A DNA stretch of 10,544 bases, from positions 1-10,544 of the IMG/VR virus record IMGVR_UViG_2579778804_000012; one strand, written 5' to 3'. Made by a program: the position numbers and the translations under genes. Positions 1 to 10,544 of the stretch are shown in pieces. Positions within the stretch are counted from its first letter, which is position 1. Each line of letters opens with the position of its first letter. The notes beneath the pieces are model-generated. The model was not told where the DNA came from. It searched no databases and saw only the letters and a list, made by a program, of their open reading frames with translations. This DNA comes from a virus (Duplodnaviria; Heunggongvirae; Uroviricota; Caudoviricetes).

Positions 1-1218
1 ATGAACAAACTGAGCGATACCTTGCTAAGGAAACTTCATGGTAAGCCAGCGGAGAAAAACACGTTTTATAGCGATGGCGGAAATCTGAGCGTGAAATATT
101 TAACATCAGGGAAATTAACCTGGTATTTCACTTACAGGGCAGGAACGGGAAGAGAGACACGACCGGAACGTATTAAGCTGGGAAATTATCCTGATCTGAG
201 CCTGAAAGCAGCCAGGGAAAAAGCCGCCCAGTGTCGCGCATGGCTGGCGGAGGGGAAAAATCCACGCCATGAGATGAATTACGCCGTACAGGAAGCGTTA
301 AAGCCGGTAACGGTTGGCGATGCGCTCACCTACTGGCTTGAGTCGTACGTAAAGGAAAACCGCGTGGATTATATCGCCCTGAAAAGGCGACTTAATAATC
401 ACGTAATACAGTACATTGGCGCTATGCCGCTGGATAAATGCGAGCTACGGCACTGGCTGGCCTGTTTTGACCAGGTGGCAAAGCGAACACCTGTTACTGC
501 CGGATTCGTGCTACAGACATGCAAGCAGGCGCTTAAGTTCTGCCGGAGGCGGCGCTTTGCAATCAGCAACGTTCTCGATGATCTGAACGTGGCGGACGTT
601 GGGAAAAAACCGGATATAAGCGAACGTGTCTTAAGCACCAAAGAACTGGGCGAGTTATTGCAGGCGCTGGATAAAAAAATATTTTCTCCTTACTACGTCG
701 CGTTAATCCGCCTCCTGATTGTCTTCGGAGCCAGGACGGTAGAACTGAGGTTATCGGAGATCAGCGAGTGGGATTTTACCGAAATGCTATGGACCGTTCC
801 GAAGGAGCACAGCAAAACGAAGGTTGCAATATTCCGGCCCATACCGGAAGCGATCCTGCCGTTCGTCACGCGGCTGGTGGACCAGAACAGGCACACGGGC
901 TTATTACTGGGGGAAGTGAAACAGGAGGCTAGCGTATCGCAGTACGGCAGATTAGCGCACAGGAGGCTAAAACACCCTCAATGGTCATTGCATGACATCC
1001 GGCGCACCTTTACAACCATGCTGAACGATTTAGGCGTTGATCCTCACGTCGTGGAGCAGCTTACAGGCCACCAGATGCCAGGAATGCAACGCGTGTACAA
1101 CCATTCCCGCTATATTGATGCGAAACGCAATGCGCTTGATATGTGGGTGGAGCGGTTGGAGATACTGGCGGGAACACATGAAAACGTAACCACGCTACCA
1201 GTAACCAGAATAAAATAA
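1..1218 (+). CDS. int: tyrosine integrase, P4-type (N-terminal arm-binding-like domain plus catalytic domain)
   Basis: 405-aa ORF. N-terminus LSDTLLRKL..GKPAEK..YSDGGNLSVKY..W.F.YR...LGNYPDLSLKAAREKA matches the P4-family integrase N-terminal pattern; C-terminus HDIRRTF....GHQMPGMQRVYNHSRY fits the H-x-x-R and catalytic Tyr region. Window begins exactly at its ATG. Confidence 0.9.
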   Translation: MNKLSDTLLRKLHGKPAEKNTFYSDGGNLSVKYLTSGKLTWYFTYRAGTGRETRPERIKLGNYPDLSLKAAREKAAQCRAWLAEGKNPRHEMNYAVQEALKPVTVGDALTYWLESYVKENRVDYIALKRRLNNHVIQYIGAMPLDKCELRHWLACFDQVAKRTPVTAGFVLQTCKQALKFCRRRRFAISNVLDDLNVADVGKKPDISERVLSTKELGELLQALDKKIFSPYYVALIRLLIVFGARTVELRLSEISEWDFTEMLWTVPKEHSKTKVAIFRPIPEAILPFVTRLVDQNRHTGLLLGEVKQEASVSQYGRLAHRRLKHPQWSLHDIRRTFTTMLNDLGVDPHVVEQLTGHQMPGMQRVYNHSRYIDAKRNALDMWVERLEILAGTHENVTTLPVTRIK

Positions 1219-1235
1219 TTTTTTTCGTGTTTTTT

Positions 1236-1251
1236 CAGTATGCGCATACTG
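1236..1251. promoter_or_regulatory. perfect 16-bp palindrome CAGTATGCGCATACTG just after the int stop; candidate protein-binding site or hairpin
   Basis: Self-complementary 16-mer read directly; preceded by a T-run (1221-1235). Confidence 0.4.
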
Positions 1252-1260
1252 GATAAGTGC

Positions 1261-1310
1261 ACAGATACAACGTGAAACAATGTGCAACAACGTGACACAA
1301 TCACGAACAA
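1261..1310. repeat. five tandem 10-bp phased units (acagatACAA cgtgaaACAA tgtgcaACAA cgtgacACAA tcacgaACAA); candidate DNA-binding array
   Basis: Exact 10-bp periodicity with invariant ACAA ends and GTGA/GTGC cores, read directly. Confidence 0.6.
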
Positions 1311-1401
1311 GAGGCCAAAAAGAATACAGATTTGTAAGCTACTGATTTTTAATGCTCAGCTGGTTTTTTATACATTAGTGAATTACGCGTTAAAGTGTGC
1401 G

Positions 1402-1438
1402 AAAAAAGGCATAAAACAAGATTTTATGCCTTTGTATT
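1402..1438. terminator. hairpin terminator candidate between int and alpA (stem GGCATAAAA/TTTTATGCC, A-run before, T-rich after)
   Basis: 9-bp perfect inverted repeat 1408-1416/1422-1430, loop caaga, followed by tttgtatt. Confidence 0.5.
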
Positions 1439-1592
1439 AACATGAATTTAAATGATTTTATCCTGATTATTCCTCTTTCTGTAAACCATGCGACACCAAC
1501 ATTTGCCAACTCTGAATCATCCTGACACAATCAGACACATCCCAACGCAATAGAACACGAAATAACTCTTTAAGAAACGAAAGGGGGCAATA

Positions 1593-1781
1593 GTGTTAAG
1601 CACTGATCGGTTTATACGTGAAAAAGAATGCGAAAAGCTAACAGGCCTTAGCCGCTCATGCCGCTACCGCCTGGAAAAGGCCGGACAATTCCCATCACGT
1701 CGTAAACTTGGTGGGCGTTCTGTTGGCTGGTCTTTATCTGAGGTTTTGGCCTGGAAGGATAGCTGCAAGGCAGTTCACTAA
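1593..1781 (+). CDS. alpA: AlpA-family transcriptional regulator / possible excisionase (GTG start)
   Basis: 62-aa ORF; LTGLSRSCRYRLEKAGQFPSRRKLGGRSVGWSLSEVLAWK matches the AlpA signature (TG.SR...Y......FP..RKLG.RSVGW...E...W). RBS AAGGGGG at 1581-1587. Confidence 0.8.
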   Translation: MLSTDRFIREKECEKLTGLSRSCRYRLEKAGQFPSRRKLGGRSVGWSLSEVLAWKDSCKAVH

Positions 1782-1920
1782 AAAGACTGGCGGCACACAG
1801 TCGCCACACATCCACTAATACAGAGATATAACTATGAAGATTGAATATGCGCCCGAACGTGGGCGGGGATTCGTTCGCCCTGGTGAAACTGAAAAACAAC
1901 AAAATTGGGGTTTTTCAGGC

Positions 1921-1950
1921 ATAAAAAAAGCGGCCCCGATATGGAGCCGC
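1921..1950 (-). terminator. candidate intrinsic terminator for the minus-strand small-gene operon (stem GCGGC/GCCGC, U-run on minus strand)
   Basis: Stem 1930-1934/1946-1950 with 11-nt loop; on the minus strand it is followed by the complement of the A-run at 1922-1929. About 75 nt below the stop of the 2025..2228 gene. Confidence 0.4.
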
Positions 1951-2024
1951 CTTTCTGAACAATTAACCTGCTGCGCCTTATGTGTATGTGATCCCAAACA
2001 TAAGCACGGGAATGATAGCCGCTA

Positions 2025-2228
2025 TCAGGCTGGTGGGCAATTACCTTGCTTGTTGGGGCCGTATTGTGCTGCCATTTTCATCCGTTCAGAACGTGAATAT
2101 TTTTTTAGAAACTCATCAAGGACAAAAGCGCATGGAGCGAATCTTTCTGATTCATGCTCGAGCGCCATATTTTCGTGCTCTCTGTTCGTTTTTTGCGATG
2201 GTGTATTGGTTGATTCTTTGTTGGTCAT
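2025..2228 (-). CDS. small acidic protein of unknown function (67 aa), paralog of the 2686..2913 gene
   Basis: Starts MTN.., shares FVLDEFLKKY with FALEDFVDKY in the paralog; identical 43-bp upstream element; RBS AGGT 8 nt upstream. Confidence 0.5.
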   Translation of the reverse strand: MTNKESTNTPSQKTNREHENMALEHESERFAPCAFVLDEFLKKYSRSERMKMAAQYGPNKQGNCPPA

Positions 2229-2237
2229 TGTGTGTAC

Positions 2238-2280
2238 CTGTAAAGCAATGCGCCGGAGTTCCTCACGCCACGGCGCTGAT
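2238..2280. repeat. 43-bp element, copy a (100% identical to 2923-2965), intergenic upstream of the MTN-type gene
   Basis: ctgtaaagcaatgcgccggagttcctcacgccacggcgctgat read identically at both sites; contains inverted repeat GCGCCG..CGGCGC. Confidence 0.9.
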
Positions 2281-2285
2281 GTTTT

Positions 2286-2465
2286 TTATTCTTTGGGTTC
2301 AATACCGCGTTGCTGTAATTCTTTTCGGATTATTCGTTTTATCCAAGCTGCTAAAGAGTCATCACCGTCTTGTTGTTGTGCTTTTTCCATCTTTTCCCGT
2401 AAGTCAGGATCTAAACGGAACTGGAAAGGAGGATTACCACGCCTTTCATTTTTGTGTGTTGACAC
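2286..2465 (-). CDS. Arc/MetJ-type ribbon-helix-helix DNA-binding protein candidate (59 aa from GTG; 34 aa if ATG at 2390)
   Basis: Minus-strand translation ..RRGNPPFQFRLDPDLREKMEKAQQQDGDDSLAAWIKRIIRKELQQRGIEPKE fits the Arc-like strand-helix-helix pattern; RBS GGGGTG 8 nt upstream of the GTG. Absent from the supplied ORF track (non-ATG start, under 60 aa). Confidence 0.45.
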   Translation of the reverse strand: MSTHKNERRGNPPFQFRLDPDLREKMEKAQQQDGDDSLAAWIKRIIRKELQQRGIEPKE

Positions 2466-2486
2466 GTCAATTACACCCCATATAAT
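2459..2486 (+). promoter_or_regulatory. consensus sigma70-type promoter: TTGACA (2459-2464), 16-bp spacer, TATAAT (2481-2486)
   Basis: Both hexamers are perfect consensus with near-optimal spacing; it overlaps the start region of the minus-strand Arc-like gene. Confidence 0.55.
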
Positions 2487-2492
2487 GTGTTT

Positions 2493-2508
2493 ATGTGTAT
2501 ATACACAT
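2493..2508. promoter_or_regulatory. perfect 16-bp palindrome ATGTGTATATACACAT immediately downstream of the -10; candidate operator
   Basis: Self-complementary 16-mer read directly, at about +1 to +20 of the promoter above. Confidence 0.5.
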
Positions 2509-2530
2509 TACACACAACTAGCACAAAAAA

Positions 2531-2599
2531 CAACGCCCCGCAGTGATGGGAACACATACGGGGCGTCTAACCAAACCATTAATTGAGGTAACGATTATG
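2531..2599. ncRNA. structured element copy 1: 7-bp GC stem CGCCCCG/CGGGGCG with 18-nt loop, conserved tail TCTAACCAAACC, RBS and ATG GCT; leader RNA on plus strand and/or terminator on minus strand
   Basis: Stem 2534-2540/2559-2565. On the minus strand it is followed by TTGTTTTTTGTG (terminator-like). On the plus strand it precedes GAGG, then ATG at 2597. Homologous to 3398-3466. Confidence 0.4.
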
Positions 2600-2685
2600 G
2601 CTATAAAAGAGCATAGCTTACTCTTTATACACACACAAACGCCCCGGAAACGGAATAATCCGTTTCATAGTTCGGTTTTGTGCAC

Positions 2686-2913
2686 TCATCCTGGCGGTCG
2701 GTTTTTGCCGGATTTAAGCCGCCGTGGGTATTTATCGACAAAATCTTCAAGGGCAAATTTTTCTGGTGGCACTAAGCGCGGCGCTGGTGGTGGTATTTTT
2801 GTTCTGGTTAGTTCTTCCTCAAGTCTGGCGCAGGCTTCTGACTGCCTTTGCCGGATGATTTCATCATCTTGCGTTTGCGTGTCTTGTATTGGTGATAGTG
2901 TGTTGTTGGTCAT
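2686..2913 (-). CDS. small acidic/proline-rich protein of unknown function (75 aa), paralog of the 2025..2228 gene
   Basis: Starts MTNN.., contains FALEDFVDKY; preceded by the 43-bp element copy b. Confidence 0.55.
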   Translation of the reverse strand: MTNNTLSPIQDTQTQDDEIIRQRQSEACARLEEELTRTKIPPPAPRLVPPEKFALEDFVDKYPRRLKSGKNRPPG

Positions 2914-2922
2914 GTTACTGCC

Positions 2923-2965
2923 CTGTAAAGCAATGCGCCGGAGTTCCTCACGCCACGGCGCTGAT
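2923..2965. repeat. 43-bp element, copy b (100% identical to 2238-2280)
   Basis: Identical 43-mer between the RHH gene stop (2971) and the downstream gene start (2913). Confidence 0.9.
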
Positions 2966-2970
2966 AGTGA

Positions 2971-3277
2971 TTATTCTGATTCTTTGGCCTTGCGGCGCTG
3001 GAGTTCTTCGCGTGCGATGGCGATAAGTTGCCCGAGTTCTTCCGTAGCTTTAATACCAATTTTTTCCACTTGCGCCAATGCATCGAGAGAAGAAATCAGA
3101 GGATTTTCACTGCTTCCTTCTGCCTGGCGGCGGGCGATCTCCCCGCGCATGGCGGTTACTATGAATCCGGCGTTGCTTTCGCCGTCCAGTTTTACGGATT
3201 CCATGCCATCAAAAGCATCATGTGGGATACGAATTGAAATCTGTTTTGATTTGTCGTTGATAGTGTTTTTTGCCATG
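2971..3277 (-). CDS. ribbon-helix-helix (Arc/CopG-like) DNA-binding protein candidate, 101 aa from the MAKNT start
   Basis: KQISIRIPHDAFDGMESVKLDGESNAGFIVTAMRGEIARRQ fits the RHH pattern. Start moved from the track ATG at 3315 to the ATG at 3277, which sits 6 nt after RBS AGGAGA. C-terminus resembles the Arc-like paralog (IAREELQRRKAKESE vs IRKELQQRGIEPKE). Confidence 0.6.
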
Positions 3278-3298
3278 TGCATTCTCCTAAACAAAAGA

Positions 3299-3376
3299 TG
3301 TGATTCAGTATACACAAAAAAGAATCACAAAAAACACTTGACCTGTGATTCAGTTGAATTTAATTTAAATCACACC
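3299..3376. promoter_or_regulatory. operator-like cluster: TGTGATTCAGT direct repeats (3299-3309, 3344-3354) plus inverted half-sites GAATCACA (3322-3329) and AATCACAC (3368-3375); weak candidate promoter TTGACC at 3338-3343
   Basis: Repeated motif in both orientations in the divergent region between the RHH gene and the Icd-like gene. Confidence 0.4.
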
Positions 3377-3397
3377 TCAGTAAGAGGATGTAAACGA

Positions 3398-3463
3398 CAA
3401 CGCCCCGAACTGTTTGCGGCAGTAGCGGGGCGTCTAACCAAACCGTTAACAGGAGTAACGATT
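3398..3463 (+). ncRNA. structured leader copy 2: stem CGCCCCG/CGGGGCG (3401-3407/3426-3432), 18-nt loop, tail TCTAACCAAACC, RBS AGGAG, then ATG GCT; candidate c4/CI-like regulatory RNA or 5'-UTR element
   Basis: Same stem, tail and RBS/start block as copy 1 but a different loop; no U-run on the minus strand, so a plus-strand role is favoured here. Confidence 0.4.
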
Positions 3464-3664
3464 ATGGCTGGAACACAGCATACCCCACGTCTGGCGCACA
3501 CACAAACTGCCTTTGTGTGGCGTTTTCTGGCCCTGAGTGCCGGAGAATCTCAAATCATCCACGTAACCGCCTGGACGGAACGCGAAGCGCGTAACCGTTG
3601 CCCGTCCGGTTGTGTTGCTGTATTCGCTGCCCGTATTCGCCAGGGGGAAACCTATGCACAATAA
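3464..3664 (+). CDS. small protein (66 aa) in the position of Icd-like (host cell division inhibitor-like) proteins of P4-type elements; identity tentative
   Basis: MAGTQHTPRLAHTQTAFVWRFLALSAGESQ...; good RBS; follows the structured leader. The first 15 aa are homologous to the truncated start at 2597 (MAIKEHSLLFIHTQT). Confidence 0.5.
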   Translation: MAGTQHTPRLAHTQTAFVWRFLALSAGESQIIHVTAWTEREARNRCPSGCVAVFAARIRQGETYAQ

Positions 3665-3884
3665 AACCACACCGGACGCAGCAGAAGAAGCAATGCAAAT
3701 ACTGATACGTGCGCTCGTTGATGTTACCCACATGGTGGAGAGCATGGAGAGAAAATCACAGTCGGAGCACGACAAAAGAAAACTTAAAACAATAAAAATA
3801 ATTGCCAAAAACTCGCTGATAAAAGTTACAGACATCCTTAATGAGGACATTAAAAGAATAAGGGAGAAAATTTGTGATGCATAA
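3654..3884 (+). CDS. hypothetical small protein (76 aa), AT-rich gene
   Basis: ATG at 3654 with RBS AGGGGG 6 nt upstream; overlaps the Icd-like stop; lysine-rich, low GC. Confidence 0.5.
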   Translation: MHNKTTPDAAEEAMQILIRALVDVTHMVESMERKSQSEHDKRKLKTIKIIAKNSLIKVTDILNEDIKRIREKICDA

Positions 3885-4104
3885 AATCCCTTTTGAAGTA
3901 TTAATCCACTCTGAAAACGCATTAATTAAAGCACGCGAAATGAATGCGTTGTTAATTAAATTAATTGAAGTGCCGGAAGGTGGTGAAGAATCAGGTGTAT
4001 TAATGTTTGCAGCCATTCAGACATTACTATCGCCTGTTATTGATGAACTGGATAAGGCAATGGCAATTCACGAGAATAATAACTCGCCCCACACCGGAGA
4101 ATAA
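3874..4104 (+). CDS. hypothetical small protein (about 75 aa), AT-rich gene
   Basis: GTG 3874 / ATG 3877 after RBS AAGGGAG; start overlaps the stop of the previous gene. Confidence 0.5.
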   Translation: MMHKIPFEVLIHSENALIKAREMNALLIKLIEVPEGGEESGVLMFAAIQTLLSPVIDELDKAMAIHENNNSPHTGE

Positions 4105-4109
4105 AAATA

Positions 4110-4409
4110 ATGAAACTTAAATATTCTGGCTTAACTGCCAGTGGCAACACTCACCCTAAATTTACGCGCGGTGATATTTACCGCGACCAGTACGGCGGCA
4201 CGGTAATGATTAAGGGCGTGGCGGGACGGTGCGTAACTTACCGCCGTGAAGGTTACGAATATGATTGCGTGATGCCTGTTTATCAGTTCCGGCGTGATTT
4301 TTCTCTGGTACAGACCGCGCCGCATAACGTGCCCACCAGCAACGCCAGGGCACGGGCAAACATCCAGAAGCTGAAAACCATGATTAACGGATTCAGGGGT
4401 AAAAAATGA
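4110..4409 (+). CDS. hypothetical protein (99 aa), translationally coupled to the helicase gene
   Basis: RBS GGAGA 9 nt upstream; its stop overlaps the helicase ATG (ATGA). Confidence 0.6.
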   Translation: MKLKYSGLTASGNTHPKFTRGDIYRDQYGGTVMIKGVAGRCVTYRREGYEYDCVMPVYQFRRDFSLVQTAPHNVPTSNARARANIQKLKTMINGFRGKK

Positions 4410-5815
4410 AACTGGCACCGAACGTAAAACTATTACCGAAAGACAAATACACCGATGCGATTATTTTTGCGGGTATTGATGCTCACTCATTCGCAGAGCA
4501 TTACATCATTGCACAGGCCAAAAAAGCAGGCGATCCAGTCCCTCCCGTTTATCTGGGGCGTTATCAGTTAAGCGAACTGGATAACCTCCAGATTGTTGAT
4601 GATGGGCGATACAGGGCGACGGTGATACGCGCCGGAAATATTGAAGAGCCGCAGCTGTTAACCATCGCCACGAAACTGGCGATCGCCGGAGTCCAGGAGG
4701 CGCGGCTACTTTCTGAAAATTTCGAATTGCTGGAGGAATGGAGCGACCAGCTTCCACGGCTTAGGGAGGCATGGGAACGCGGGGAAAGCCTGGTCATGAA
4801 AAAAATCCCCCAGCGAAAAACCACGCTACCGATGAGCGTTGGATCTACCGGATACGACACACAGCTTGATTACGTGGTAAAGGGGATTATTCCGGCATCG
4901 TCGCTTTGCAGCATATACGGGGCGAGCGGTTCCTATAAATCATTCCTTGCCGGATCGTGGGCGTGTCACGTTTCCACGGGCCGCCAGTGGGGAGGCCGCA
5001 GGGTGGCGCATGGCGCTGTTCTCTATGTGGTTGGTGAAGGCGGTATCGGCGTTCCGCGTCGTGTAAAAGCCTGGGAGGTTGTGCACGGTGAGCAGGTGAA
5101 AAATCTGTATCTGGTAAACCGTCCCATCTTTCCGGCGGTCCCGCTTGATGTTGATGAAATGGTTATCGCTGCCCGTCAGGTGGAGCGGGAAACGGGTAAA
5201 CCTGTACGCATGATTATTCTGGATACGCTGGCGCGTTGCTTTGGTGGGAATGATGAAAATGATTCCCGTGATATGGGGGCGTTTATCCGTGGTTGTGACG
5301 AACTGAAACGACGCACAGGGGCCACGGTGCTGGTGGTTCACCATTCCGGCAAGGATGAGACGAAAGGCGCGCGCGGTTCCAGTGCATTTCGTGCATCACT
5401 GGATGCTGAATACCGGATACGCAGGGAGGACGCAGGAAGCGAAGCGCTGGTTATCTCATGCACCAAAATGAAGGACGCGGAGGAACTCAAAGAAGCCGCA
5501 TATGACTTACGCGTGGTGGAGCTGTTTACCGACGCTGACGGGGAGTTAATCACGTCGCTGGTGGTGGTGGATAAGCCGCGCCCTCCCGTTGAACTGGAAC
5601 GCATCGAGGAGGCAGGCAACAAGACGGAAAACCATACCGCACTATGGGGGTGCATCCGTTCACGCACACAGAACGGCGACAAGTGCACGATCCCGCTGTT
5701 ACGTGATGACATGAAACGGCTTGGGTATGACGTGAAAAATATGCGGCGATGGTTAGCCAAACTGGAAAAAGACGCCGTGATTTACATTGATGGTGATGAT
5801 GTAGGACCACTGTAA
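4406..5815 (+). CDS. RepA-like replicative helicase / RecA-fold AAA ATPase with C-terminal DNA-binding region
   Basis: 469 aa; Walker A GASGSYKS, Walker B-like VRMIILDTLAR, then VLVVHHSGKD; an iteron array lies immediately downstream. Confidence 0.85.
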   Translation: MKLAPNVKLLPKDKYTDAIIFAGIDAHSFAEHYIIAQAKKAGDPVPPVYLGRYQLSELDNLQIVDDGRYRATVIRAGNIEEPQLLTIATKLAIAGVQEARLLSENFELLEEWSDQLPRLREAWERGESLVMKKIPQRKTTLPMSVGSTGYDTQLDYVVKGIIPASSLCSIYGASGSYKSFLAGSWACHVSTGRQWGGRRVAHGAVLYVVGEGGIGVPRRVKAWEVVHGEQVKNLYLVNRPIFPAVPLDVDEMVIAARQVERETGKPVRMIILDTLARCFGGNDENDSRDMGAFIRGCDELKRRTGATVLVVHHSGKDETKGARGSSAFRASLDAEYRIRREDAGSEALVISCTKMKDAEELKEAAYDLRVVELFTDADGELITSLVVVDKPRPPVELERIEEAGNKTENHTALWGCIRSRTQNGDKCTIPLLRDDMKRLGYDVKNMRRWLAKLEKDAVIYIDGDDVGPL

Positions 5816-6015
5816 AAAGTGAGTAGCAAAAGTGAGTAATGGTGAGGTTTTTACAAAATATTAACACGATTACTCACTTTCTCACCTGTATACATGCTCA
5901 AAAGTGAGGAGTAAAAAAATCCTTATGAAACACACACATAAAGCATCAAAAAATATCAAGTGAGACGAAGCGAGACGCTTTAAAAAGTGAGGTGTAAAAG
6001 TGAGCATGAGTGAGG
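5816..6015. repeat. iteron array, putative replication origin: at least 9 copies of (A)AGTGAG in both orientations with AT-rich spacers
   Basis: GTGAG at 5819, 5832, 5842, 5904, 5960, 5987, 6000, 6010; inverted CTCAC at 5874 and 5881; AT-rich stretches 5850-5870 and 5911-5957. Confidence 0.6.
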
Positions 6016-6269
6016 AGATAACCAAAATGCGCAGAGACAGAACAGAGCCGAAATATAAAGCGTTAGACATGACAGAGCACGCCTTAAAGGTGGCAATCAG
6101 GGTAATAGACCGCCACGCGGGGGAAGGATACGCGAAGGAGCATCCCGAACTGATAAGCGCATTCATGACCACAGCGGCGGCAAACTTTGCCACGCTGACA
6201 GAGCGGGAGATTGCGGAAGCTGAACAGGTGACAACCATCAACGTTAAAAACGTAGAGGTGGAATCATGA
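6000..6269 (+). CDS. hypothetical protein (about 87-89 aa)
   Basis: GTG 6000 or ATG 6006 after GAGG; its stop overlaps the ssb-like start. Confidence 0.55.
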   Translation: MSMSEEITKMRRDRTEPKYKALDMTEHALKVAIRVIDRHAGEGYAKEHPELISAFMTTAAANFATLTEREIAEAEQVTTINVKNVEVES

Positions 6270-6688
6270 CAGCACAGATAGCGGCTTACGGGCGGCTGGT
6301 GGCTGACCCACAGTTAAAGACCACCAGCAAGGGCACACAAATGACGATGGCGAGTATGGCTGTCCCCCTGCCGTGCAGCCAGGCAGATGACGGAACGGCT
6401 ACGATGTGGTTATCCGTCCTGGCGTTTGGCAGACAGGCCGACGCACTGGCAAAACACCGCAAAGGCGAGCTGGTGAGCGTGGCGGGTAACATGCAGGTAA
6501 GCCAGTGGACAGGCCAGAACGGCGAAACGCGGCAGGGCTGGCAGGTTATCGCAGACAGCGTAATCAGTGCGAGAACGGCGCGACCGGGCGGCAAAAAAGG
6601 CCAGCAGGGGCAGGCTACTGACGCACTGAACAGGGCAAAACAACAGGCGGGGAATGATGATCCGTACGGGGATAACATACCGTTTTAA
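6266..6688 (+). CDS. ssb: single-stranded DNA-binding protein (SSB-like, short form)
   Basis: 140 aa; N-terminal OB-fold-like region, Gly/Gln-rich linker, and C-terminal acidic tip DDPYGDNIPF resembling the SSB D-I-P-F tail. Confidence 0.7.
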   Translation: MTAQIAAYGRLVADPQLKTTSKGTQMTMASMAVPLPCSQADDGTATMWLSVLAFGRQADALAKHRKGELVSVAGNMQVSQWTGQNGETRQGWQVIADSVISARTARPGGKKGQQGQATDALNRAKQQAGNDDPYGDNIPF

Positions 6689-6702
6689 GCAACGAGTGAC
6701 AG

Positions 6703-7154: not shown

Positions 7155-7349
7155 ATGCCAGAGAACAACACCAGAAAGCCGGATAAAAGTGCCACGGTAC
7201 ACATAGACGCCGGAACTATGGAGAAGATCGAACGCTATCAGCAGTTCATCAAAGATAATCACCCGGGTATGCCAGTGCCCACGAAAGGACAAATCACACG
7301 CAGCGCGGTTGAATACTGGTACAGGGCAACGTTAGGAGCCTGGCTATGA
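7155..7349 (+). CDS. small protein (64 aa), possible RHH-type regulator, translationally coupled to the capsid gene
   Basis: ATG 7155 is 7 nt after RBS GGAGG (the track ORF starts earlier at 7122); its stop overlaps the ATG at 7346. Confidence 0.5.
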   Translation: MPENNTRKPDKSATVHIDAGTMEKIERYQQFIKDNHPGMPVPTKGQITRSAVEYWYRATLGAWL

Positions 7350-9235
7350 AAACATGGTTTTCCATTAAGGCTATGGCAGATGTTGTACATGTGCGCATTT
7401 ATGACGAGATCGGCGGGTACGGTGTAAAGGCATCGGCACTTACTGACGAGATCAACGCGTGCGGTAATGTGTCTGAAATCCATCTGAGCATTCATTCACC
7501 TGGTGGCGACATCTTTGAAGGGCTGGCTATCTATAACGCTCTGAAAAATCATCCGGCAAAAAAAATCGTACACATTGAAGGCATGGCGGCTTCTATGGCG
7601 TCGTTTATTGCCATGTGTGGAGATCACATCGTTATGCCTGAAAACGCGATGATGATGATACATGCCCCCCGTGGTGTTACTGCCGGAGTGTCGGGCGACG
7701 TTCGCCGCTTTGCTGATCTGATGGACAAGCTGGGCGACACGATGGCAGAAACCTATGCCGGAAGAACGGGCAGGAGCAAACAGGAGATCACCTCCATGAT
7801 GGAGGCGGAAACCTGGATGGATGGCAATGAGTGTAAGGCTAACGGCTTCGCAGATGAGGTTATACCCGCGATTACAGCAATGGCCCGAATTGAATCAAAA
7901 CGAATCGGAGATTTTTCAAATATGCCGGAAAAAATTAAAAGCATGATCAGCCAGAAAACTGGCAGTGGCGAACAGGAACGACTTAACGGAATCCGTGAAT
8001 TGTTTGGCACCTTCAACGGAAGATATAACGACCTGGCTATAAGTTGTCTTGCGGATTCAGAATGTAGCGTTGAGAATGCACGCGAACGCCTTTTACTCGC
8101 TATGGGTAAAGAATCAACGCCAACAAACAAAACCACCCCCGCAAATCTTTACTACGCGTACACGGATAACGGCAATATAACCGGCGATGCCATGCGTCAG
8201 GGGCTTAATGCGCGTCTTGGTCACGAACGGGCCGAACGCGGTAATCCTTACGCCATGATGAGCCTTTTCGATATGGCACAGGCATCATTAACCCATCGTG
8301 GTATAAGCACGGGCAGCTACAGCACACGCTCGCAGATAGTAAACGCGGCATTCACCCACAGCAGCAGCGATTTTACCGATATCCTTGCTGGTGGCGCTGA
8401 AAAATCAGTGCTTGCAGGCTGGGAGCACAGCGGCGAAACATTCCGCCAGTGGACGAAAAAAGGTTCCCTTTCAAACTTCCGGGAAGCCCGCCGCGTTGGT
8501 ATGAATGGCTTCTCAACGTTAAACAAAGTGCCGGAAGGGGCAGAATATAAATACATCACCACCAGCGATCGCGGTGAACCCATCGCGCTGGCTACTTACG
8601 GGAATATTTTCAGCATTACCCGCCAGGCGATAATCAATGATGACCTTGATCAGTTATCAACGGTGCCAATGGCTATGGGCCGTGCAGCATCAAGAACGGT
8701 GGGAAATCTGGTTAATCTGGTGCTTACAGGCAACGTAAAACTTTCTGACGGAATAGCGCTGTTTGACAAAAAACACAGCAACCTGATTGAAGCAGGACTG
8801 ACAACACCGGGACTTAGTGCAGCACGTCACCTGATGCGCACACAGAAGGACAAAAATGGCGAAGTGCTGAATATTGCGCCTAAATTCCTTTTAGTTCCGG
8901 CAGCACTGGAAGATCGCGCGTTGCAGATGATTAACTCAACCGCACCTTTCGGGGCTGATAAAAACAGCGGGATCTTTAACCCGTATCACAAGCTACTTGA
9001 TATCATCGTCGATCCCCGCCTTGATGATATCAGCGAAAAACAATGGTACATGCTTTCCGCACAGGGAACGGACACAATCGAGGTGGCTTATCTTGATGGC
9101 AATGACGAACCTTACCTTGAACAGCAGGAAGGCTTTATCGTTGACGGCGTGGCCTGGAAAGTCCGTATTGATGCAGGTGTGGCAGCTCTGGATTATCGCG
9201 GTATGGTCAAATCAGGCGGTACCGATTCACTATGA
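7346..9235 (+). CDS. prohead protease (ClpP/S14-like) fused to a probable major capsid protein, with a scaffold-like linker
   Basis: 629 aa; N-terminal 170 aa IHSPGGDIFEGLAIYNALKNH...HIEGMAASMASFIAMCGDHIVMPENAMMMIHAP matches the phage ClpP-like head-maturation protease pattern; the C-terminal ~400 aa is inferred to be capsid from size and context, not from a recognised motif. Confidence 0.75.
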   Translation: MKTWFSIKAMADVVHVRIYDEIGGYGVKASALTDEINACGNVSEIHLSIHSPGGDIFEGLAIYNALKNHPAKKIVHIEGMAASMASFIAMCGDHIVMPENAMMMIHAPRGVTAGVSGDVRRFADLMDKLGDTMAETYAGRTGRSKQEITSMMEAETWMDGNECKANGFADEVIPAITAMARIESKRIGDFSNMPEKIKSMISQKTGSGEQERLNGIRELFGTFNGRYNDLAISCLADSECSVENARERLLLAMGKESTPTNKTTPANLYYAYTDNGNITGDAMRQGLNARLGHERAERGNPYAMMSLFDMAQASLTHRGISTGSYSTRSQIVNAAFTHSSSDFTDILAGGAEKSVLAGWEHSGETFRQWTKKGSLSNFREARRVGMNGFSTLNKVPEGAEYKYITTSDRGEPIALATYGNIFSITRQAIINDDLDQLSTVPMAMGRAASRTVGNLVNLVLTGNVKLSDGIALFDKKHSNLIEAGLTTPGLSAARHLMRTQKDKNGEVLNIAPKFLLVPAALEDRALQMINSTAPFGADKNSGIFNPYHKLLDIIVDPRLDDISEKQWYMLSAQGTDTIEVAYLDGNDEPYLEQQEGFIVDGVAWKVRIDAGVAALDYRGMVKSGGTDSL

Positions 9236-9888: not shown

Positions 9889-9930
9889 GTGACGGAGAGT
9901 GACAACCAGTGACACACCGTGACAAAAAGA
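9889..9930. repeat. four tandem 10-bp phased GTGAC units (GTGACggaga GTGACaacca GTGACacacc GTGACaaaaa)
   Basis: Exact 10-bp phasing read directly; same motif family as the 1261-1310 array. Confidence 0.6.
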
Positions 9931-10391: not shown

Positions 10392-10544
10392 TCAAAATAG
10401 GTTATATATAACAGCAATAAATAATGCGAGAATAAACGGCACGATGATCTCGGCGGCAAAACGGATACCGCAGAGAATAATGACCAGCATTCCCAACATA
10501 ATGACGATTTTTAGGCCATTGAGCGTGATGATCGGCTTTGCCAT
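10392..10544 (-). pseudogene. 5' fragment of a membrane transporter gene (51 codons, 46-aa hydrophobic N-terminus); TqsA/PerM-like from memory, unverified
   Basis: Minus-strand ATG at the window edge encodes [46 protein letters not shown], then YNLF and a stop at 10392-10394; far shorter than a full transporter. Confidence 0.45.

Follow-up and report, generated by a model that had tools for sequence, protein, structure and literature searches.

How does a small phage satellite that carries its own helicase gene initiate replication, which part of the protein recognizes the origin, and where does the primer come from? We addressed this question in IMG/VR record IMGVR_UViG_2579778804_000012, whose whole 10,544-nucleotide stretch is referred to here as the window. 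The window constitutes a complete phage-inducible chromosomal island (PICI) of the Gram-negative type, ~10.5 kb long and inserted in the Escherichia coli gene tqsA. Positions 4406–6017 very probably form its rep-ori replicon, in which Rep would serve as both initiator and helicase. A preceding sequence-only reading had proposed a RepA-like helicase with an adjacent iteron origin and no visible primase; this interpretation is the model already published for PICIs (PMC6092414).

The rep gene and its adjacent iteron array

The region comprises the helicase gene and a repeat array that begins directly after its stop codon:

4406–5815, + strand: rep, encoding a 469-aa RepA-family helicase/initiator (open reading frame (ORF), AAA_25, phrog_2850)
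4406–4795, + strand: Rep N-terminal domain, residues 1–130, alpha/beta, no detectable primase
4856–5359, + strand: RecA-fold helicase core (AAA_25)
4919–4942: Walker A, GASGSYKS, residues 172–179
5210–5230: Walker B, MIILDTL, residues 269–275
5618–5812, + strand: Rep C-terminal domain, residues 405–469, predicted winged helix (AlphaFold2 (AF2) topology)
5732–5770: VKNMRRWLAKLEK motif, containing the putative recognition helix MRRWLAKLEK (residues 446–455), which is preceded by K444-N445
5817–5908: left iteron set, GTGAG at 5819, 5832, 5842 and 5904 (+) and at 5873 and 5881 (−)
5909–5958: AT-rich spacer, presumed unwinding site, 50 bp, 74% A+T against 52% for the whole window
5959–6017: right iteron set, GTGAG at 5960, 5987, 6000 and 6010 (+), with a degenerate GCGAG at 5970

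Rep residues 151–318 match Pfam AAA_25 with an E-value of 1e-43 and 149.7 bits, well above the curated cut-off of 27, and the whole protein matches phrog_2850 end to end. Both Walker motifs are present, align with those of RSF1010 RepA (PDB 1g8y) and are invariant in our alignment A1. The gene is labelled 'helicase RepA family protein' in a 100% identical E. coli record. An NCBIfam scan of Rep returned sub-threshold RadA matches only. These data confirm the helicase with clear Walker motifs that had been called at 4406–5815. The AF2 model of whole Rep is weak (mean pLDDT 67.5, with the ATPase core below 50 over several segments), and a Foldseek search against PDB with this model was discarded because the model is too poor for the result to be meaningful.

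Ten GTGAG cores, eight direct and two inverted, lie within the 196 bp of 5819–6014, and the rest of the window, 10.3 kb, adds just 8 more. The richest 200-bp stretch in each of 1000 first-order Markov simulations contained 2.2 GTGAG on average and at most 6. The longer word AGTGAG occurs exactly 9 times in the window, 8 of them inside 5818–6014; shuffling the whole window gave a mean of 2.45, and one of 200 shuffles reached 9. Additionally, the iteron triplets at 5810–5858 and 5978–6026 are the two copies of a 49-nt direct repeat, their cores spaced alike at 13/10 nt, and the degenerate GCGAG at 5970 aligns with a perfect copy in the published PICI EcCI042. The expectation of at least nine iterons with inverted copies and AT-rich spacing behind the helicase gene is thereby borne out, the AT-rich stretch of 5909–5958 lying between the two sets. 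No sigma-70 promoter or terminator was predicted in 5650–6150.

The same reading had the iterons extend into the start of the next gene. This holds only for its longest start, GTG 6000, and fails for starts at 6018 or 6027, so that the overlap depends on an ORF that was called too long. Relatives share a conserved start at 6018, where RefSeq also begins the gene; the codon there is ATG elsewhere and ATA in the window. ATG 6027 is a better candidate than ATA 6018, since it lies 9 nt after the GAGGAG of the last repeat; judged from this spacing, the last iteron likely supplies the ribosome-binding site of the small ORF, and the repeats therefore more likely end at that site.

A perfect palindrome, TGTATACA, stands at 5887–5894 between the inverted iterons and the next direct one. 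It occurs once in the window, and all eight E. coli and Salmonella origins in the alignment retain it unchanged, irrespective of iteron type. The palindrome may serve as a site for a host factor or as a structural part of the origin.

The Rep C-terminal domain co-varies with the iteron sequence

We compared 55 usable loci encoding helicase-core relatives from other genera and sought enriched short words in the 330 bp after each stop codon. Each sequence cluster of the Rep C-terminus pairs with its own repeat of the general form (A)AGTG-N, and the cluster-specific words are scarce or missing elsewhere in each 8-kb locus. The pairs, given as repeat, residues before the conserved RW, and source, are as follows:

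GTGAG(GA): K-N-[FM], Escherichia and Xenorhabdus
GTGGGGA: K-H-F, L032 and L035 types
GTGGGGGA: K-K-F, Serratia, Pectobacterium, Morganella and others
GTGCGGC: K-S-F, Kosakonia, Enterobacter and Citrobacter
GTGGGGGC: R-K-H-F, Pantoea (L050)

The pairing has predictive value: the repeat GTGGG, predicted from the protein alone by its KH residues, was found at loci L089 and L090. It also holds among near-identical proteins. Specifically, protein P0003 shares 95% identity with the window Rep and has six differences in the C-terminal 70 aa, including VKNMR to TKHLK; its origin aligns in register with that of the window, and 11 of its 11 repeats, inverted copies included, read GTGGG. P0042 and P0061 match this pattern. 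When close E. coli and Salmonella origins are aligned in register, AAAGTG is invariant and GTGAG is changed to GTGGG (A to G) at every copy; in an eight-way origin alignment the invariant columns cluster on the AAAGTG-G of each repeat, and the spacers diverge. Across 80 IMG/VR loci, all 38 K-N proteins are followed by 4–10 GTGAG and 0–3 GTGGG, and 41 of the 42 K-H proteins by 7–11 GTGGG, with 0–2 GTGAG downstream of all 42. The proposal that the iterons are bound by the Rep C-terminal domain is thus supported by sequence co-variation in both locus sets, over about 140 loci in all, and by the confirmed KH prediction.

In the C-terminal domain, AF2 places helices at residues 408–422, 429–438 and 446–455 and strands at 459–462 and 465–468 (pLDDT 82–88), so that the domain likely adopts a winged-helix fold, with K444-N445 placed where the third helix begins. 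No significant sequence match to this domain was found in Pfam or PDB; the best Pfam match was HTH_36 at E 0.16, and the best relevant match in a PDB profile search was a transcription-regulator helix-turn-helix at E 0.52, both weak.

Other candidate iteron binders were rejected. DUF4222, the small ORF downstream of the origin and SSB are each absent from about 50 loci that keep iterons, and the small ORF is missing from non-Escherichia loci that retain them. The N-terminal domain of Rep was discarded as the specificity determinant: the Rep of the PICI EcCICFT073 has the same N-domain with unrelated iterons (GGTAGAYA), and because this protein shares the N-domain yet differs in both C-terminus and iterons, specificity must lie outside that domain. 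Iteron type is also independent of the att (attachment) site and of the capsid module, the window and EcCI042 both having GTGAG with different capsid genes.

The window is a complete PICI in tqsA

The window is 100% identical to an island of E. coli strain 89-3156 that interrupts tqsA. In a supplementary table of Fillol-Salom et al. (2018, ISME J), EcCI042 and EcCIK1516 are listed in tqsA with the att core ATAACAGCA (PMC6092414), and we found this core at window position 10408. The genes follow in the order integrase, AlpA, small leftward genes, Icd-like, DUF4222, rep, repeat region, small ORF, SSB, ClpP-protease/major-capsid fusion and a 93-aa ORF. The left part contains two Pfam-assigned genes:

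1–1218: tyrosine integrase, left end of the island
1593–1781: AlpA regulator

The island thus has the sequence-level features by which PICIs are recognized: a left-end integrase and a specific site of attachment in the chromosome, alpA, mainly rightward unidirectional genes, a size within about 8–12 kb, and rep with an origin directly behind it in which two iteron sets enclose an AT-rich region. No tail, lysis or terminase genes are among the annotated genes of the 10.5-kb island. EcCI042 has a block of identical type, namely DUF4222, RepA-helicase, a 200-bp gap, small ORF and SSB. The stretch 4000–6700 was matched in 1776 of 5426 complete E. coli genomes, 474 of which cover at least 80% of it.

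Published work places the PICI origin immediately 3' of rep as two iteron sets flanking an AT-rich region, and distinguishes four allelic Pri-Rep variants in E. coli PICIs (PMC6092414). In EcCICFT073, a rep-ori fragment kept a thermosensitive plasmid in DH5alpha without helper phage, mutations in rep or ori lowered plasmid maintenance, and over-expression of AlpA in a non-lysogen led to uncontrolled replication (PMC6092414). The proposed combination of a helicase with an adjacent iteron origin agrees in layout, gene order and att site with this published definition (PMC6092414).

The Rep N-terminal domain, DUF4222 and the source of the primer

The gene directly upstream of rep completes the block:

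4110–4409, + strand: DUF4222 gene, 99 aa (Pfam DUF4222, E 2e-23), overlapping the rep start by ATGA

The sequence-only reading saw no primase and suggested a domain search of the N-terminal region and of this 99-aa protein. No primase family in Pfam, PHROGs or NCBIfam matched Rep or any other island gene, PHROG matches labelled primase/helicase span the ATPase core only, and the upstream protein proved to be DUF4222, so that the claim stands. The N-domain has no zinc ribbon, no cysteines and no conserved acidic triad; the alignment of its family (A2) contains one nearly invariant acidic residue, D43. The zinc ribbon plus Toprim with Glu and DxD that characterize DnaG/T7 gp4-type primases are accordingly missing from the window Rep. 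Neither the N-domain nor DUF4222 gave a significant match in PDB by sequence or profile search, and Foldseek with the N-domain model found no PDB match below E 0.037. Resemblance of its fold to DnaG-type primases is weak.

Most relatives outside Escherichia align with the window Rep only from residue ~135 onward, and their N-termini fall into the following groups:

Group 1: ~340 aa with Zn_Ribbon_Prim and Toprim_3 (L005 and others; also P0119)
Group 2: a distinct 125-aa domain (L032 type)
Group 3: almost no N-terminus (380- and 361-aa forms)

A sequence-based case for Toprim ancestry of the window N-domain was dropped, as hhalign against the zinc-ribbon/Toprim region of related Reps gave a probability of 0.2%; the MAFFT pairing of AIIFAGID with IAGDNDV in alignment A1 was not taken as evidence for it. 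It is possible that the domain is an inactive Toprim derivative. A separate primase gene upstream of the short (380-aa) L045 Rep was also considered and dismissed, since the 292-aa ORF there is an integrase.

The window-type N-domain forms a separate family of 68 cluster representatives. It is N-terminal in all of them and is fused to RepA, D5-type, VapE-like or DUF927 cores, and these four fusion types agree with the four published Pri-Rep alleles (PMC6092414). With the N-terminus of EcCICFT073 Pri-Rep it shares 45% identity; in that protein we found D5_N, DUF5906 and Pox_D5 only and no recognized catalytic primase domain. All 11 loci with the window-type N-domain, covering both RepA-type and D5-type Reps, have DUF4222 directly in front of rep; among ~50 loci with other Rep N-termini (Toprim or other) there was one weak DUF4222 match. 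DUF4222 and the N-domain may work jointly, or travel as one recombination block.

By analogy, host DnaG is the likeliest source of primers for the window replicon, because the EcCICFT073 Rep, with the same N-domain and no recognized catalytic primase domain, replicates without a helper. A bolder proposal, which we regard as rather doubtful, is that the N-domain, which always comes with the overlapping DUF4222 gene, is a portable non-catalytic module, possibly Toprim-derived, that replaces a primase domain on four unrelated replicative helicase families of enterobacterial satellites and recruits host DnaG or another part of the host replisome to the origin. If true, a DnaG-recruiting N-domain would let phage satellites dispense with their own primase in a manner not yet described.

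A working model and its alternatives

We infer that Rep binding, melting, helicase loading and priming would proceed as follows. A helper phage would trigger AlpA-driven rightward transcription, upon which the island would excise and Rep be made. The C-terminal winged-helix domain of Rep would read the roughly ten AAGTGAG iterons in their two sets, and the bound Reps would oligomerize via their RecA-fold (RepA/DnaB-like) ATPase cores. Rep would then melt the 50-bp AT-rich stretch and load on the single strands as the replicative helicase, with 5'-3' polarity as in RSF1010 RepA. The island SSB, likely an accessory of the replicon, would coat the unwound DNA, and host DnaG and DNA polymerase III would carry out priming and synthesis.

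Several alternatives were weighed against this model. The repeats could instead be operators through which Rep or another regulator controls transcription or copy number of the small-ORF and ssb genes, the origin lying elsewhere in the island. Two points speak for this: the last repeat overlaps the probable ribosome-binding site of the next gene, and the iterons of iteron plasmids also serve autoregulation and handcuffing. However, no promoter-like site was predicted in 5650–6150, no other combination of repeats and AT-rich DNA stood out (repeats were scanned in 5700–6150 only, composition over the whole window), and regulation is compatible with origin function. Since the layout of two sets around an AT-rich core is moreover needed for replication in EcCICFT073 (PMC6092414), we consider the operator explanation quite improbable. 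That the cluster is no origin but a packaging (pac/cos) or recombination site is extremely unlikely. In favour of it, satellites require a packaging signal, and the window yielded none; against it, the repeat type tracks rep and not the capsid module or the integrase/att type, the island encodes no terminase small subunit, and the same layout stands beside rep in loci with very different neighbour genes.

The remaining alternatives concern what the replicon would need from outside. If a helper phage supplied priming or the whole replisome, the module could not replicate without helper infection; the window is without a lambda-type cos site, unlike EcCICFT073, which makes another kind of helper possible. 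By analogy, the replication of EcCICFT073, whose Rep has the same N-domain, in non-lysogens after AlpA over-expression, and of its rep-ori plasmid in DH5alpha, argues against such dependence (PMC6092414), and we hold it to be unlikely. Conversely, Rep might prime for itself, its N-terminal 130-aa domain, perhaps together with DUF4222, being a divergent Toprim-derived primase. We rate this as very unlikely.

Some observations weigh against the rep-ori replicon model itself or parts of it. The att core is present once only in the window, which begins at the int ATG, and the island ends were therefore taken from the matching 89-3156 genome record. The winged-helix call comes from AF2 on a shallow alignment, with no significant sequence or fold match. 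Among the IMG/VR loci, a lone K-H outlier has only 2 GTGGG; among the loci from other genera, L081 is without clear iterons. The codons of the recognition helix lie 50–250 bp from the iterons, so physical linkage adds to the association, although linkage cannot account for a concerted base change in ten separate copies. The source of the primer is argued by analogy, and the only replicon tested experimentally is the D5-type one of EcCICFT073, the window allele being known from sequence.

Relation to known replicons

The published Gram-negative PICIs EcCI042, EcCIK1516 and EcCICFT073 share with the window the order int, alpA, DUF4222, rep, ori, small ORF, ssb and capsid genes (PMC6092414). EcCI042 matches the window in its RepA-type rep and its GTGAG iterons, whereas EcCICFT073 has a D5-type SF3 helicase and GGTAGAYA iterons, with only the N-terminal 130 aa in common. 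The window differs from the published islands in its ClpP-protease/major-capsid fusion, found in place of Phage_cap_E plus a decoration protein, and in having no lambda-type cos.

The likeness to the Pri/Rep-ori of Staphylococcus aureus pathogenicity islands (SaPIs) is one of architecture, helicase and origin binding residing in one protein. In SaPIs the initiator is itself a helicase with origin-specific binding, and the variable part of Rep matches the iterons; these islands differ in a separate or fused primase gene, the Stl repressor and divergent transcription. Phage P4 alpha likewise combines a helicase with a C-terminal origin-binding domain for short repeats. Its helicase is of the SF3 D5 type with an N-terminal primase, whereas in the window Rep the helicase is of the RecA fold and no primase is detectable. 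PICI Pri-Rep variants also differ in sequence from P4 alpha (PMC6092414).

RSF1010 (IncQ) RepA belongs to the same AAA_25 family and has the same RecA-fold core, with marginal similarity (E 0.007). It consists of the ATPase core only (279 aa), whereas the window helicase is fused to a predicted origin-binding domain and the island encodes no primase. In RSF1010, iteron binding and priming are the work of two further proteins, the initiator RepC and the primase RepB'. No counterpart of either was found among the island genes by Pfam, PHROGs, NCBIfam or annotation, and because both are missing, the island is not an IncQ replicon. Also related are the Zn-ribbon/Toprim-RepA fusions of Xenorhabdus, Serratia and Pectobacterium islands, which are 52–72% identical to the window Rep over residues ~135–469 and are followed after the stop by AAGTG-N iterons, as in the window. 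They carry Zn_Ribbon_Prim and Toprim_3 (~340 aa), in contrast to the unrelated-looking 130-aa domain without catalytic residues of the window. Because it lacks the zinc ribbon and Toprim, the window Rep is not a T7 gp4/Twinkle-type primase-helicase.

Implications

Beyond the published model, our analysis gives exact origin coordinates for the RepA-type Rep allele and a one-residue correlate of iteron specificity: Asn at position 445 goes with GTGAG and His with GTGGG, and other cores accompany Lys, Ser or Gly. This simple, testable rule could serve for re-targeting or typing replicons and for predicting the incompatibility of co-resident satellites. Also new is that island proteins called 'Pri-Rep' or 'DNA primase' share an N-domain without a recognizable catalytic primase that is linked to DUF4222. 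Together, the replication module and its origin are now marked for a PICI type found at least partly in about a third of complete E. coli genomes.

Downstream genes, capsid module and further observations

Two small genes follow the origin:

6018–6269, + strand: small conserved gene, phrog_1231, 80–83 aa, downstream of the origin
6266–6688, + strand: SSB, 140 aa (Pfam SSB, E 3.7e-16; TIGR00621, 61.5 bits, above cut-off)

The position of ssb is identical in EcCICFT073 and EcCI042. Further right, 7346–9235 encodes one 629-aa protein in which a ClpP-like prohead protease is fused to an HK97-type major capsid protein (Phage_capsid_4); in EcCI042, whose rep/ori is the same, a Phage_cap_E capsid and a decoration protein take the place of the fusion. 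No portal, terminase or tail genes were found in the island, and a scan of the window allowing 3 mismatches found no lambda-type cosN/cosB, whereas EcCICFT073 has helper-like cos sites.

In the left part, between 1800 and 3700, the long + strand ORFs 1834–2586 and 2543–3664 look spurious. They overlap annotated leftward genes (YlcI/YnfO-family and hypothetical), and the AT skew is reversed over 1800–3700.

Near the right end, four GTGAC copies stand at exact 10-bp spacing (9889, 9899, 9909 and 9919; window 9889–9923), about 490 bp left of the att core. The array also occurs in EcCI042, which has the same tqsA site and integrase type, and is absent from EcCICFT073, which has a different site; because of this distribution, it is a candidate arm-type array that may bind the integrase or an excision factor.

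Finally, a 16,971-bp circular 'plasmid' of Klebsiella pneumoniae (L091, CP018459.1) is a capsid-forming PICI-like element that carries genes for an integrase, capsid, head-tail adaptor, terminase and a tape-measure fragment. It encodes a Rep homologue with 60% identity over residues 138–469, and the deposited circle may represent a satellite in its excised, replicating state that came out of assembly as a plasmid, which would be circumstantial evidence for autonomous replication.

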